This document shows, piece by piece, positions 34,508 to 38,981 of a stretch of DNA of 64,000 bases; positions within the stretch are counted from its first letter, which is position 1, and each line of letters begins with the position of its first letter. The notes under the pieces are model-generated. The model was not told the DNA's origin. It saw nothing but the letters and a program-made list of their open reading frames with translations, and did no database searches. The stretch comes from Planctomycetota bacterium. GTDB taxonomy: Bacteria > Planctomycetota > UBA1135 > UBA2386. Position numbers and translations under genes: made by a program. Location: NCBI GenBank assembly GCA_947501605.1, contig CANMWZ010000005.1, positions 1 to 64,000 on the forward strand, written 5' to 3'.

Positions 34508-35422
34508 TCACCTTACCGCGAGGGCGGCAGTCCGGCGCTGCTGCAGAAGGTTGTCGATCGTGTAGATCGCGAGCCCGGCCCAGATGCCGGCGAAGCACAG
34601 CGCGCGCGAGGCGGGGAACGGCTCGCCGTACACGTACACGCCAAGCGCGAGTTGCACGCTCGGCGACAGGTACTGCAGGAGGCCCATCGTGGTCATGCGG
34701 ATGCGCTGTGCGCCGTAGCCGAACCACAACAGCGGGATCACAGTGACTACACCCGTGCTCGCGAGCCAGACGAGGTCGGAGGACGTTCCGCGCGAGAGGG
34801 CGCCGTCGCCATTCGCGAACCGGACGGCGAGGAAGGCCAGTGCGATCGGCGCCACGAGCAGCGTCTCGCTCGCGAGCCCGGCCAGCGCGCCGAGCTTCGA
34901 GCGCTTGCGCAGGAGGCCATAGGTGCCCCAGGTCGCCGCGAGCCCGAGCGCGAACCACGGCACGGCGCCGAACTCGATCACCATCGCGAGCACGGCGAGC
35001 GCGGCGAGGGCGATCGCGACCCCCTGCGCGGGCCGCAACCGTTCGCCGAGGACGAAGCGCCCGGCGGCGACGTTGACGAGCGGAACGAGGAAGTAGCCGA
35101 GGCTGCACTCGATCACGCGGCCGCTGTTGACGCCGATCACGTAGAGCAGCCAGTTGCTGGTCAGCAGCAGCGCGGTGAGAAAGTTGCGCAGAGCCTGCTT
35201 CGGTTCGCGCACGACGGCGAGGACGGCCTGCAGTTCGCCGCGCAGCGCGCACAGGGTCAGCAGCACGAATAGCGACCACAGACCGCGGTGGGCGATGACC
35301 TCGTACGAGTCGAGGTGCGAGAGGCGCTTCCAGAACAGCGGCACCACGCCCCAGAACAGGTAGCACGCGGCGGCGGCGAGGGCGCCACGCGCGTTCTCGG
35401 GATGGGGGGCGGGGCCGGTCAC
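34508..35422 (-). CDS. rarD: EamA-family transporter RarD
   Basis: YLFWGVVPLFWK, HRGLWS, NWLLY, SLGYFLVPL, YGLLRK, GLLQYLSP. Confidence 0.93.
   Translation of the reverse strand: MTGPAPHPENARGALAAAACYLFWGVVPLFWKRLSHLDSYEVIAHRGLWSLFVLLTLCALRGELQAVLAVVREPKQALRNFLTALLLTSNWLLYVIGVNSGRVIECSLGYFLVPLVNVAAGRFVLGERLRPAQGVAIALAALAVLAMVIEFGAVPWFALGLAATWGTYGLLRKRSKLGALAGLASETLLVAPIALAFLAVRFANGDGALSRGTSSDLVWLASTGVVTVIPLLWFGYGAQRIRMTTMGLLQYLSPSVQLALGVYVYGEPFPASRALCFAGIWAGLAIYTIDNLLQQRRTAALAVR
34510..34515 (-). promoter_or_regulatory. -10 hexamer of a putative leaderless transcript (inside the rarD 3' end)
   Basis: gg-TAAGGT-6 nt-GTG(34503). Confidence 0.4.
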
Positions 35423-35542
35423 GGGGGGCGGGAAGGGTGGCCTTTGGGAAGGGGCGCGTCAACGGCGTGGTCGGCACCGCGAGTGAGCTATGCTGCGCCC
35501 CCTCGTTCCACCTGCAACCCGGAACACCTTGGAGTCGAATCC

Positions 35543-36883
35543 GTGAAGACCGCGTACCTGACCGCCGCCGCCCTGCTGCTCGTTCCCGCTCTCGTCGCCC
35601 AGGACCCCGCGCGTTTCGCCGCGCCCGTTCGCCTCGAGGCCGGCGCCAAGAAGCTCGGCGCCAAGTCCCTCGGCGAAGGGCGCCTCTATCCGTCCCCCGT
35701 GCTGCACGACGTGAACGGCGACGGCCTGCTCGACGTCGTCGTCGGCGACCTGCGCGGGCGCATCACGTTCGCGCTGCGCGAGAAAGGCACCGGCGCTCCG
35801 CACTTCGCCGCCGAGCAGAAGTGGATGGGCGCTGACGGCAAGGAACTCGACTTCCACAACTGGTGATGCATCGGCATGAGTCCACAGTTCGTGGACTTCG
35901 ACGCGGACGGCACGCTCGACATGGTTGCGGGCATCTTCGACGGCTCGCCGCACCTCGCGCGCGGCACCGACAAAGGGCACGCACCGCCCGAGCAGATCCT
36001 GGATCGCGACGGCGCGCGGATCGTGATGAACGCGATGTGGGACTTCGACAGCAAGCCGCCGAAGTGGGTGGAGCAGACGCGCTGTGACCCCGAGGGCGGC
36101 ATGCTGCAGCGCGGGCACATCACATCGGCCTGGGCCTTTGACTGGGACGCCGACGGCGATCTCGACCTCTTGCTGGGCGACCACGATCACGGGCAGGTGA
36201 TGCTGCGACGCAATGAGGGCAAAGCGGGCGCGCCCGCGTTCGCGACCAGAAACGAGTACGTGCGCGTCGGCGAGCAGCCGCTCGTCGTGAAGGGCACCGT
36301 CACGACGCTGCGCACGATCGACTGGGACGGCGACGGCCTTTTGGACCTGTTGGTCGGCAGCATGGGCGATGCCTATGGCGGCGGCGAGGGCGGCGGGGTC
36401 TACGTCTGCCGCAACGCCGGGGCGAAGGGCGCGCCGCGCTTTCAGCCGCCGACCGTGCTGATCGAGCCGAGCGCGCGCGGGCACAAGGATGCTGTTCGCC
36501 CCGACGCCGGCCTCTACATGGACGCAGCCGATCTCGACGGCGACTCGGACCTCGACCTCGTAGTCGGCGGCTACTCGACGTGGACGCCGGAGCCGCCCGC
36601 GCTCGACGACATGCAGAAAGCGCGCGTCGCCGAGTTGCAGAAGCAGATCGCGGGCCTCGACGAGGAGTCGCAGCGCTACTTCGAGGCCCTGCGCGAGGCA
36701 ACGAAGGGGCTCGACGACGAGGCCTACACCAAGGCCTACGCCGAGTTCCAGAAGGGCGAGGCCGGAACGGCGCGGAGCGCGCGGCAGAAGCGGCAGCAGA
36801 CGCTGCGCGAGGAACTCGAACCGCTCGTGCCGGGGATGAAGCGGCAGTCGTTCACTTGGTACTACGAGAACCTCGCGAAGTGA
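35543..36883 (+). CDS. secreted FG-GAP/VCBS-repeat protein, putative selenoprotein (Sec at codon 108, W-U-C)
   Basis: GGAG then GTG 35543 with signal peptide; D.(N/D).DG..D..(V/A)G repeats on both sides of an in-frame TGA at 35864-35866, which continues in frame (TGC ATC GGC ATG...) into ORF 35876-36883; SECIS-like hairpin directly after the TGA. Confidence 0.75.
35867..35905 (+). promoter_or_regulatory. putative bacterial SECIS element
   Basis: Upper stem AGTCCAC/GTGGACT closing loop AGTTC (G at loop position 2), loop 19 nt after UGA; imperfect lower stem TGCATCGG/TCGACGCG. Confidence 0.7.
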
Positions 36884-37494
36884 CCGCGCGCTGGGAGCTC
36901 CTCCCGCGCGCGCAGCAGCGCGTGATGCCGTGGCAGAACGGCTTTGGCACCACGCGCCAGGTCGCGATCGATCCGCCCGATGGCTCGCTCGCCACGGGGT
37001 TTCGCTGGCGCATCAGCGTGGCAATGGTGGGGCAGGGCGGACCGTTCTCGCACCTGCCCGGCGTCGACCGTGCGCTGTGGCTCGTGCGCGGCAACGGCAT
37101 GCGGCTCGCGATGCCAGATCGCGAGGTCGTGCTCGCCGAACCGTTTGCGCGCCTCGACTTCCAAGGCGAGACGCCGATCGAGGCCGCGCTGCTCGACGGC
37201 CCGTGCGAGGACTGCAACGTGATGACGCGGCGCGGCGAGGTGGTGGCGGCAGCGCGCGTCGTGCAGCTTGCGGCGCACGAGCGACTCGGCGTCGAGAGCG
37301 CGCCACAGCAGGTGCTGCTCGTGCTCGCCGGCAGTGTGCGTGTGGAGGCGCGGGCCCTCGCGCTCGGCGAAGGGGATGCACTCCTTGTGGAGGGGGATGC
37401 CGAGTTCGCGGTCGTCGCGTCCGAGGCATCGACGGTGCTGCTGGCTGCGTTCGTGTCGCGTCGTGACTCGTTCGCGGGCGAGTTGCATCCTTAG
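36880..37494 (+). CDS. hutD: HutD/Ves family protein
   Basis: MPWQNGFGTTRQVA, FRWRISVA, GPFSHLPGVDR, DCNVMTRR; GTG overlaps the upstream stop. Confidence 0.88.
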   Translation: MTARWELLPRAQQRVMPWQNGFGTTRQVAIDPPDGSLATGFRWRISVAMVGQGGPFSHLPGVDRALWLVRGNGMRLAMPDREVVLAEPFARLDFQGETPIEAALLDGPCEDCNVMTRRGEVVAAARVVQLAAHERLGVESAPQQVLLVLAGSVRVEARALALGEGDALLVEGDAEFAVVASEASTVLLAAFVSRRDSFAGELHP

Positions 37495-37805
37495 GTGTTG
37501 GAGGAGTGCTTGCAGCTGTGGGGGATTGTGCGGTTGCCGCCGGCGATGGGGACGGGAAGCGGGGGCCACGCGGAGCCTGTGGAGCGAGGTTGCGGTCAAG
37601 GTCTCGAGAAGCTCCTTCCGTCGCTACGCATCAAGTCGATCGCGAAGACGCGACCAGTTCCGCTGCAGCTTGACGAAGGCTTGGTCGGTCGGGACGCTGA
37701 TATGCCTTCGGGTCCAATGGGGCATAGAGCGCTCTGACTTTCGGGCCCGAGGACCATCAACCATCCCGCAGCTTCCTCACGCGGGGATCGAACCCAGAAC
37801 TCGAC

Positions 37806-38981
37806 ATGATCCTTCGTACTTCCCTAGTCCTCTCCCTGTGCTCTGTGGCCGCGTTGGCGCAGACCAATCGCTCGGTGACCCTCGGTGTCGCGCCTGGCCT
37901 CGGGGTCACGTCGACCTACACGGCGGCGTATCCGACTTCGGCGGCGGGGCGCTTTGGGTTCTTCCTGCTGACGCTGCCGGAACTCACCGCGCAGCCGCTG
38001 ACGGTGCCGGGCTTCACTTCGAACGGGCTCGTGCGCGTCGACTTGAACAACCAGTTGCTGAACTCGTTCTGGTTGCTCGATGGGTCAGGGAGTCAGGGCT
38101 TCTCGGTGCCGATCCCGACGGACTACGTGTTCCAGGGGTTCTCGTTCGACGTGCAGACGGTGGACGTGGACTTTGGCGCGAGTGACCTCGCCTGGGCGGA
38201 CAATGATCTGGAGTTGACGATCGGGCAGGGGGTTGTCGGGCAGGGGCTCAACATGGTTCGGATCCCGGCGGGGACGTTCCAGATGGGGTCGCCTGAGCCG
38301 TTGAACGTAGCGCCGTTCTACAACCAGCCTAATGCACAACCCGTGCATGCCGTGACGATCACCCTTCCGTTCTGGATGGGGAAGTACGAAGTCACGCAGG
38401 CGGAGTATCAGGCGCTAATGGGCTCGAACCCCTCTGTCTGGATCGGGGCCCAGCACCCTGTGAACAACGTAGATTGGAACGACTCTGTGACTTACTGCGC
38501 GGCACTCACTGCAGTGGAGAGTGCGGCAGGGCGTGTGCCGGCTGGCTATCAGTATCGTCTGCCGACCGAGGCAGAGTGGGAGTACGCCTGCCGTGCCGGT
38601 GGCGCTACCGAGTTCAGTCACGGGCAGACTCTGGTCTGTAGTCAGGCCAACTTCAACTTCAGCACCGATTCCGTCATGTTCTGTGGGATCAATTCGATTG
38701 TCGCCGTCGGGAGTTACGCTCCGAACGGGTTCGGCCTGCACGACGTACATGGCAACGTCCAAGAGTGGTGCCTGGACGCTTGGGATGGTTCGGCGAACTA
38801 CCCCGCATCGCCAGTCTCTGATCCCTGGGTTTCTAGTGGACCGCTTCGAGTCCTCCGTGGTGGGCACGACCAGGTCTCCTCGGTGTATTGCCGCTCCGCC
38901 TATCGGCAAACAGGCCAGCCGAGCAGGGAGAACAGCACCATGGGGTTCCGGGTCGTTCTCGCCCCAGTTCTCGTCCCGTGA
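37806..38981 (+). CDS. secreted FGE-sulfatase (C-type lectin fold) domain protein; candidate DGR target
   Basis: Signal peptide; IPAGTFQMGS, FWMGKYEVTQAEY, YRLPTEAEWEYACRAG, PNGFGLHDVHGNVQEWC, C-terminal RGG...CRSAYR...GFRVV. Confidence 0.9.
   Translation: MILRTSLVLSLCSVAALAQTNRSVTLGVAPGLGVTSTYTAAYPTSAAGRFGFFLLTLPELTAQPLTVPGFTSNGLVRVDLNNQLLNSFWLLDGSGSQGFSVPIPTDYVFQGFSFDVQTVDVDFGASDLAWADNDLELTIGQGVVGQGLNMVRIPAGTFQMGSPEPLNVAPFYNQPNAQPVHAVTITLPFWMGKYEVTQAEYQALMGSNPSVWIGAQHPVNNVDWNDSVTYCAALTAVESAAGRVPAGYQYRLPTEAEWEYACRAGGATEFSHGQTLVCSQANFNFSTDSVMFCGINSIVAVGSYAPNGFGLHDVHGNVQEWCLDAWDGSANYPASPVSDPWVSSGPLRVLRGGHDQVSSVYCRSAYRQTGQPSRENSTMGFRVVLAPVLVP

Follow-up and report, generated by a model that had tools for sequence, protein, structure and literature searches.

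Does the DNA between positions 35543 and 36883 hold two adjacent genes, or a single gene whose internal UGA codon is read as selenocysteine (Sec)? The question arises from a window of 64,000 nucleotides, the whole stretch of planctomycete DNA that was analysed, in which a preliminary description had proposed a hidden, secreted selenoprotein made of FG-GAP repeats. Here we trace the reading frame, the hairpin behind the UGA, the homologues and the Sec machinery of the genome, and then ask what an exported protein of this kind might do with a vicinal Sec-Cys pair.

Reading frame and downstream hairpin

The two open reading frames are indeed one frame that is interrupted only by TGA-TGC-ATC-GGC, just as the preliminary description had it. 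Translation would begin at a GTG at 35543, meet one in-frame TGA at 35864-35866 (codon 108), go on through TGC ATC GGC to an ATG at 35876 and end on a TGA at 36881-36883. With the internal TGA read as U, the product has 446 aa and carries ...DFHNW-U-CIGMSPQFVDFDADG (Trp-Sec-Cys). Its features around the start and the UGA are the following:

35543..36883, + strand: almost certainly a single gene of 446 codons with an internal UGA as Sec108 (from ORF read-through, homologues, Pfam and model)
35531..35534, + strand: GGAG motif resembling a Shine-Dalgarno sequence, 8 nt ahead of the GTG (seen in the sequence)
35543..35599, + strand: probable cleavable signal peptide, residues 1-19, with the mature chain starting from Gln20 (by eye)
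35864..35869, + strand: UGA-UGC, vicinal Sec108-Cys109, in the predicted loop into strand A of blade 2 (alignment of 172 members and model)
35878..35898, + strand: candidate bSECIS hairpin, stem GAGUCCAC/GUGGACUU, loop AGUUC at 35886-35890, 19 nt past the UGA (folding, covariation and conservation)

The signal peptide that had been claimed for the N-terminus is recognizable by eye as MKTAYLTAAALLLVPALVA followed by Q, and most homologues have hydrophobic N-termini ending in A-x-A-Q or AQ, so that the gene product is predicted to be exported. The TGA is spanned unchanged by contigs from 4/4 sequencing runs (3 studies, with X9 possibly being the source of the same DNA), and an assembly error was ruled out because metagenome contigs cross the codon without change. 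The stretch was contained in runs from metagenomes of lake water and freshwater sediment. Two contigs from RNA libraries (X13 and X16) also cross the TGA and begin near the start codon with zero cover upstream of it, keeping in mind that DNA can occur in such libraries. No promoter- or terminator-like site was found within 35300-37900.

A HutD-family gene (PF05962, E 3.7e-46) follows at 36880-37494 on the + strand, and its GTG start overlaps the final TGA (GTGA), which suggests translational coupling to the propeller gene; a HutD gene adjoins a family gene in only one other locus. Upstream, at 34508-35422 on the - strand, lies a divergent gene for an EamA-family transporter, and a similar upstream region is seen in a few close relatives.

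The hairpin 3' of the UGA has an 8-bp stem and a 5-nt loop, AGUUC, with a folding energy of -10.9 kcal/mol and a z score of -3.9 as a 21-mer (2/200 shuffles were as good). In 48- and 62-nt windows the z score is only -1.0 and the genome has 66% GC, so that the energy alone proves little. According to the legend of Fig. 2 in PMC13188914, bacterial SECIS elements have a loop of 3-9 nt with a G in the first two loop positions, an upper stem of 4-16 bp, a distance of 16-37 nt from the UGA and a minimum free energy of <= -7.5 kcal/mol, and the query hairpin with AGUUC, 8 bp, 19 nt and -10.9 kcal/mol falls within these bounds in loop, stem, spacing and energy, as the preliminary description had anticipated. 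The upper stem, the loop and the spacing that it had reported therefore stand, but its imperfect lower stem is poorly kept among homologues, with pairs +12/+32 and +13/+31 holding in 93 and 99 of 156.

A conserved hairpin downstream of the TGA in homologues had been suggested as a check, and all five inner pairs are kept in 148 of 156 TGA forms, compared to 0/11 Cys forms and 2/366 equivalent positions in sister blades. At the second position of the loop, 149 of the 156 have G. Two-sided changes occur at 4/6 pairs (39 cells; 0/500 shuffles) among 94 of 138 distinct 45-mers, a count inflated by the relatedness of the sequences, and 94.9% of cells are paired in these same 94 45-mers as opposed to 30-45% in slid controls. 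The proline codon of the stem is CCA in 102/129 members, while CCA makes up 6% elsewhere in family genes, and its choice is coupled to the opposite arm: all 102 CCA members have GTG or ATG there and 23 of 25 CCG members have GCG, i.e., a synonymous change at Pro is tied to a Val/Ala change as RNA pairing requires. The 3' arm is also encoded by the first codons of the DxDxDG loop of blade 2, and the same loop, C-AGUU(U/G)-G, follows the UGA of two unrelated genes for UxxC thioredoxin-like proteins in the same genome. By these comparisons selection acts on the hairpin as an RNA element, and together with matched, hairpin-free Cys forms as controls it offers a clean model for SelB recognition.

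Homologues and selenocysteine machinery

Full-length matches carry one TGA, and the family is matched in 53/61 genomes of the query's taxonomic family. TGA stands at the Sec column in 162 gene copies that represent 156 distinct contexts (loci L021-L193) and is followed by TGC in 152 and by TGT in 4 of these; this TGA-Cys column is kept in homologues down to ca. 28% identity to the query. Trp precedes Sec in only 105/156, and Gly, Ser, Tyr, Thr, Phe, Gln or Val are found otherwise, so that the W-U-C motif of the preliminary description is correct for the query but the motif of the family is U-C. Exceptions at the column are L154 (TGT-TGC), L155 (TGC-TGT) and the divergent L156, a full-length homologue in which Gly-Tyr replaces Sec-Cys and whose genome (G428) lacks Sec machinery. 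Counts exclude a frameshifted row (L053), distant generic FG-GAP proteins (L056-L063), two rows in which the column is uncovered (L158 and L238) and one missed by the motif regex of the hairpin count (L275).

Homologues thus have TGA or Cys at this column: next to the 156 TGA contexts, 118/120 database relatives of the Cys form are Cys-Cys, the column being uncovered in the other 2. A clade with the motif IYCC[IV]G (P0272, P0274, P0343 and P0362, from Gimesia, Lacipirellula and Allorhodopirellula) is named only as FG-GAP/VCBS repeat protein, and named relatives are Planctomycetota. Cultured species carry Cys-Cys forms, which makes the function testable now. In a midpoint-rooted FastTree phylogeny of 161 rows, Cys forms are found in two places among Sec forms (L154 is nested with support of 0.93-0.94), which suggests loss of Sec under this root and makes Sec the likely ancestral state of the family.

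The expectation that annotation pipelines would split the gene was borne out by the best 120 database matches, all of which (120/120) cover only the C-terminal 74-75% of the protein, with 119 beginning at MSPQ, while N-terminal halves form their own clusters of ca. 105 aa. Sec forms are thereby cut into nameless halves, so that family statistics and proteomics databases miss them. The family was not found at E<=1e-45 in 251 genomes of the phylum of G456 or 121 of that of G458 (sets without a positive control), and it was not found in plasmids. A metagenome scan returned TGA in 77/79 loci, though its pattern was built from residues encoded by the hairpin and is therefore biased to TGA forms and silent on the Sec:Cys ratio. 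When 1.84 billion representatives were searched with a profile, multi-repeat proteins dominated the results and nothing could be learned about the family from them.

Several individual loci deserve mention. The sole TGC match of the metagenome scan (L231:5021-5060) has TGC-TGC with an intact hairpin and no N-terminal half upstream. In L053, a one-base insertion in the region of the hairpin loop shifts the frame with the TGA still in place. One genome (G033) has 15 matches, and all 10 that were fetched (L078, L079 and L115-L122) have TGA-Cys and the hairpin. Family genes form tandem pairs in L044 and L175. Extra cysteines surround the site as C-V-U-C in L185 and as U-C-x-C-F-C in L123, L177 and L181.

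Looking for selA, selB, selC and selD had been proposed as a way to check the recoding, and all four were found in the genome. The proteins SelA (471 bits), SelB (335 bits) and SelD (348 bits) score above curated cut-offs, and the tRNA-Sec(UCA), with 79 bits against a cut-off of 47, is the sole UCA tRNA at default ARAGORN settings. The selD gene itself has one in-frame TGA and lies adjacent to selA (G000 C4:41082-43372, + strand), with selB on C2 and selC on C1. A global reassignment of UGA was considered and rejected, TGA being the stop of 1511/1880 long training ORFs of this genome. ARAGORN also listed two long (95 nt), possibly false tRNAs, Ala(AGC) and Thr(CGT), at G000 C4:151369-151463 and C30:6871-6965.

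Further in-frame TGA candidates of the same genome lie at G000 C32:8515, C18:32545, C1:343603, C15:32957, C19:54980 and C7:58886, all on the - strand; by motif, we take four (U-G-P-C) and one more (U-P-A-C) to be thioredoxin/TlpA-like and the remaining one (CxxU) to be SelW-like. At C39:5093 and C2:274987 (both - strand), coding-like sequence lies on both sides of an in-frame TAG, with one gene presumably encoding a FIST-like protein and the product of the other looking secreted; these may be pseudogenes, errors or cases of read-through. Genome-wide scans by hairpin and codon score were too noisy to define the selenoproteome.

Across the phylum, selA was detected in 298/401 sampled genomes, suggesting that Planctomycetota are an under-explored group of selenium users. 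The propeller family is common, with an alignment profile finding it in 112/401 genomes, often as several paralogues, and 109/112 have the TGA form as scored by the stop column, whose position was verified for 70 fetched loci. Among these 109 genomes, 108 have selA, and the last one (G120, in 410 contigs) has selB above the cut-off. The TGA form is thus seen in 1/103 selA-negative genomes compared to ca. 28 under independence, with the proviso that kin are not independent samples. The genomes G368 (Cys-Cys) and G428 (Gly-Tyr) have neither selA, selB nor tRNA-Sec, while G371 (Cys-Cys) has all three. In a second sample of 301 genomes of another class, 16 had family matches: TGA forms came with selA and selB in 5/5 genomes, and 9 of 11 genomes with open forms lacked both (7/11 being from one genus). 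Only 1/24 genomes of family f7, in which Cys forms occur, has selA. As far as these genome samples reach, the TGA form tracks Sec-decoding genomes, and Cys forms appear mostly in genomes without Sec machinery.

How else could the stop codon be accounted for? A pseudogene or sequencing error is brought to mind by the stop itself and by the relative frameshifted just past its hairpin, L053. We consider it hardly conceivable, since dozens of families share this TGA in this column, contigs of independent runs span it unchanged and the frames are intact on both sides; the presence of TGA or Cys in homologues likewise speaks against a strain-specific nonsense mutation. Alternatively, a suppressor or leaky read-through might insert Cys or Trp at the UGA, or the halves might be separate polypeptides that assemble after translation, in line with the two genes called by annotation and with an ATG at most 6 codons past the TGA in 76/156 members. 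We judge this very improbable: another 76/156 have no ATG, GTG or TTG in those 6 codons, the spacing in homologues is invariant and in frame, and the C-terminal half has, by eye, no signal peptide of its own, as the preliminary description had remarked. Moreover, the only tRNA with a UCA anticodon at default ARAGORN settings is a genuine tRNA-Sec (79 bits vs. 47), the hairpin fits the bSECIS model and the TGA form follows selA and selB. Recoding as Sec, by comparison, almost certainly makes 35543-36883 a real, intact selenoprotein gene decoded by the known bacterial mechanism, and we have very high confidence in the joint claim that there is one reading frame, that position 108 is Sec, that selection acts on the hairpin and that the gene depends on the Sec trait.

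Predicted fold and possible function of the Sec-Cys site

Pfam detects FG-GAP_3 (E 1.6e-19, 3 stretches) and FG-GAP in the read-through protein, and the presence of these repeats on both sides of the TGA, as claimed earlier, is seen from FG-GAP_3 together with DxDxDG motifs recognized by eye on each side. DxDxDG in loop AB and matches to PF13517/PF01839 place the query in the VCBS/FG-GAP superfamily. An AlphaFold2 model built on 35 sequences (pLDDT 93.8, pTM 0.91) predicts that the mature protein is a five-bladed FG-GAP/VCBS beta-propeller with the following parts:

35708..35725, + strand: DxDxDG-type loop of blade 1, D56-G61, upstream of the UGA (conservation; strands E32-36/E45-49)
35894..35911, + strand: DxDxDG loop of blade 2, D118-G123 (conservation)
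36032..36073, + strand: extra beta-hairpin predicted between blades 2 and 3, specific to the subfamily (model strands E145-148 and E155-158)
36140..36157, + strand: DxDxDG loop of blade 3, D200-G205 (model and alignment)
36320..36337, + strand: DxDxDG loop of blade 4, D260-G265 (model and alignment)
36530..36547, + strand: DxDxDG-type loop of blade 5, D330-S335 (model and alignment)
36608..36817, + strand: predicted helical insertion of three helices in blade 5, optional in the family (model H337-406)
36839..36865, + strand: C-terminal strand SFTWYYEN, predicted to complete blade 5 (model E414-422; W439 in 81%)

Since the C-terminal strand completes blade 5, the fold would need both ends of one chain. 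In the model, the three helices of the insertion come after strand B and before strand C of blade 5, and the insertion is cut to 12-25 residues in 14/172 members, with members lacking the regex anchor falling outside this measurement. D56 is found in 100% and D60 in 99% of 172 members. DxDxDG in loop AB binds Ca2+ in PVL and integrins (PMC8023676), and the five loops of the query probably bind Ca2+ on one face.

The Sec-Cys pair lies in loop 85-95 of the mature-chain model, ahead of strand A of blade 2. U or C followed by C is found in 172/172 aligned members; U/C108 and C109 are both 100% conserved, and the other columns at 99-100% are Pro, Asp and Gly of the repeats. Sec/Cys-Cys is, in this alignment, the only invariant element outside the repeat scaffold, and no invariant catalytic acid, His or third Cys was found among the 172 members. 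In propeller topology, the loop before strand A faces away from the loops between strands A and B. From this general rule and the strand order of the model, the U-C pair would lie at the mouth of the central funnel, opposite the Ca2+ face and beside the optional beta-hairpin and the helical insertion, with the helices of the insertion on the same side.

What could such a protein do? We favour a redox catalyst that works on its own in the cell envelope or at the surface (probability of ca. 0.6 to 0.65), based on the invariance of U/C-C, on Cys as its regular and only well-represented substitute (118/120) and on UxxC thioredoxin-like proteins that could recycle the pair. The genome has five such Sec candidates, at least 3 of them with N-termini that resemble signal peptides by eye. 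Redox proteins make up the majority of characterised selenoproteins (PMC13188914, section 7), and PQQ alcohol dehydrogenases have vicinal disulfides on their propellers (PMC13384848). In the proposed mechanism, SelB bound to the AGUUC-loop hairpin would deliver Sec-tRNA(UCA) to UGA108, and the chain would fold into the five-bladed VCBS/FG-GAP propeller with its signal peptide removed. The selenolate could then attack an oxidised substrate in the funnel, with a disulfide, polysulfide, peroxide, sulfoxide or metalloid oxyanion as options, and the neighbouring Cys would resolve the intermediate to give an eight-membered selenenyl-sulfide ring that exported thioredoxin/TlpA-type proteins might re-reduce. 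Paralogues that have diverged in their loops would differ in substrate. No conserved redox partner or neighbour emerged from the flanking genes, as the best recurring cluster (10/158 loci) consists of close kin or shadow frames and Pfam on 150/297 flanking ORFs gave scattered hits. The homologue without both residues, L156, indicates that the scaffold can persist without Sec-Cys.

Two other functions are compatible with Sec recoding. The pair might be a soft-metal or metalloid site (Hg, Cu, Ag, As or Te) on an exported scavenger or chaperone, considering that Table 1 of PMC13188914 has CU motifs in HgcA, SaoL and MbdU and GxUC in a CopZ-family (2Fe-2S) protein, and that some members add Cys at the site (CxUC in L185; UCxC in L123, L177 and L181). 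His, Tyr or Phe at 49 and His at 192 in 35% would be in keeping with this, as would, weakly, TerC beside a family gene in 3/150 scanned neighbours. We nevertheless find a metal site unlikely, because a third ligand is unconserved among the 172 members, a metal-resistance operon context was not found and the up to 15 matches in G033 fit diversification of substrates better than a single scavenging job.

The propeller could also resemble lectins or adhesins, with the Se-S ring as a stable element that binds a ligand, and it might then be a glycan binder switched by redox state. Vicinal disulfides that bind sugars were reportedly described by Richardson in 2017, and such rings can be structural or sugar-binding instead of catalytic. 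Lectin propellers usually carry a binding site on every blade, whereas U-C is found on one blade only, and keeping Sec and hairpin over paralogues with ca. 28% identity would be costly for a passive ring. Although lectins (PVL, tachylectin) and integrins are among the VCBS propellers (PMC8023676), and CRTAC1, ITFG2 and integrins are the relatives by sequence whose structures have been solved, we regard this option as quite improbable. FG-GAP/VCBS proteins are usually taken for adhesins or lectins, and the invariant Sec-Cys points to chemistry in one branch of them. Returning to the redox catalyst, we see a slightly better than even chance for the broader picture of a large, old and often multi-copy class of Planctomycetota selenoenzymes, i.e., exported five-bladed VCBS propellers that would perform extracellular redox chemistry with a vicinal Sec-Cys ring placed at the mouth of the funnel, within a selenium-based envelope redox network, and have given rise to Cys forms via loss of Sec.

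Comparison with known selenoproteins and propellers

Genes known to be decoded via SelB and bSECIS elements (PMC13188914, section 5) resemble the query gene in having an in-frame UGA, a hairpin inside the ORF at 19-nt spacing, a loop of 5 nt whose second base is G and whose third is U, selA/B/C/D in the genome and Cys homologues without a hairpin. Compared to them, the hairpin position of the query family is unusually fixed (+19) over a very divergent family. The closest relatives outside the Sec forms, the Cys-Cys homologues with IYCC[IV]G, share length, a signal-peptide-like N-terminus, five repeats, the helical insert and the vicinal pair, but have Cys for Sec and no hairpin; 9/11 genomes with such forms lack selA and selB, and these proteins are uncharacterised as well.

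Among VCBS propellers, integrin alpha, CRTAC1, ITFG2, PVL lectin and tachylectin-2 likewise have DxDxDG between strands A and B (PMC8023676), while the query is set apart by five blades each with DxDxDG, the Sec-Cys pair and the helical insert. CRTAC1 is the closest sequence relative with a structure (E 7e-9, similarity at the level of repeats), and Foldseek TM scores to integrin-type chains are only ca. 0.3. The best whole-fold matches to the query model are five-bladed glycosidases of GH43/62/32/68, topped by GH62 (Z 19.1, rmsd 3.8, 277 residues aligned, 10% identity). At 5-13% identity to the query this likeness of fold shows no function, and neither a GH Pfam match nor an invariant acid outside the DxDxDG/strand-B scaffold that could be a catalytic Asp/Glu was found. 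PQQ quinoprotein dehydrogenases are propellers larger than five blades; the query model is five-bladed, and the query has no PQQ-enzyme Pfam match. What PQQ alcohol dehydrogenase has in common with it is the adjacent Cys-Cys ring on a propeller, in a protein of unrelated sequence (PMC13384848).

Vicinal pairs with Sec have precedents, such as the adjacent Cys-Sec of animal thioredoxin reductase. Bacterial CU/UC selenoproteins comprise SaoC, SaoL, HgcA, KCU-star and GxUC CopZ-like proteins (PMC13188914, Table 1). All of these are unrelated to the query in sequence, and its U-C stands internally on an exported VCBS propeller instead of in a C-terminal tail or in a metal protein of the cytoplasm. 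Literature and catalogues contain little to compare it with: the family is not among the 119 prokaryotic selenoprotein families of Table 1 in PMC13188914, whose main text has 0 occurrences of FG-GAP, VCBS, repeat, propeller or planctomyc; none of the 87 families in Table 1 of PMC9312934 fits, nor does any in the new-family table of PMC12013277; and our search of the open-access literature found nothing that ties FG-GAP or VCBS proteins to selenocysteine or selenoproteins. NCBIfam 20.0 has 0 families for the query, and 35 members match only unrelated repeat or coiled-coil models. The remark that this is not a characterised selenoprotein family therefore agrees with both Table 1 of PMC13188914 and NCBIfam 20.0. 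Relative to the catalogues compared, the decoding mechanism is known, while the family, its predicted fold and its predicted exported location are new, and the family brings the beta-propeller fold, an exported location and the internal U-C as a motif context to the catalogued prokaryotic selenoproteome, which had lacked them.
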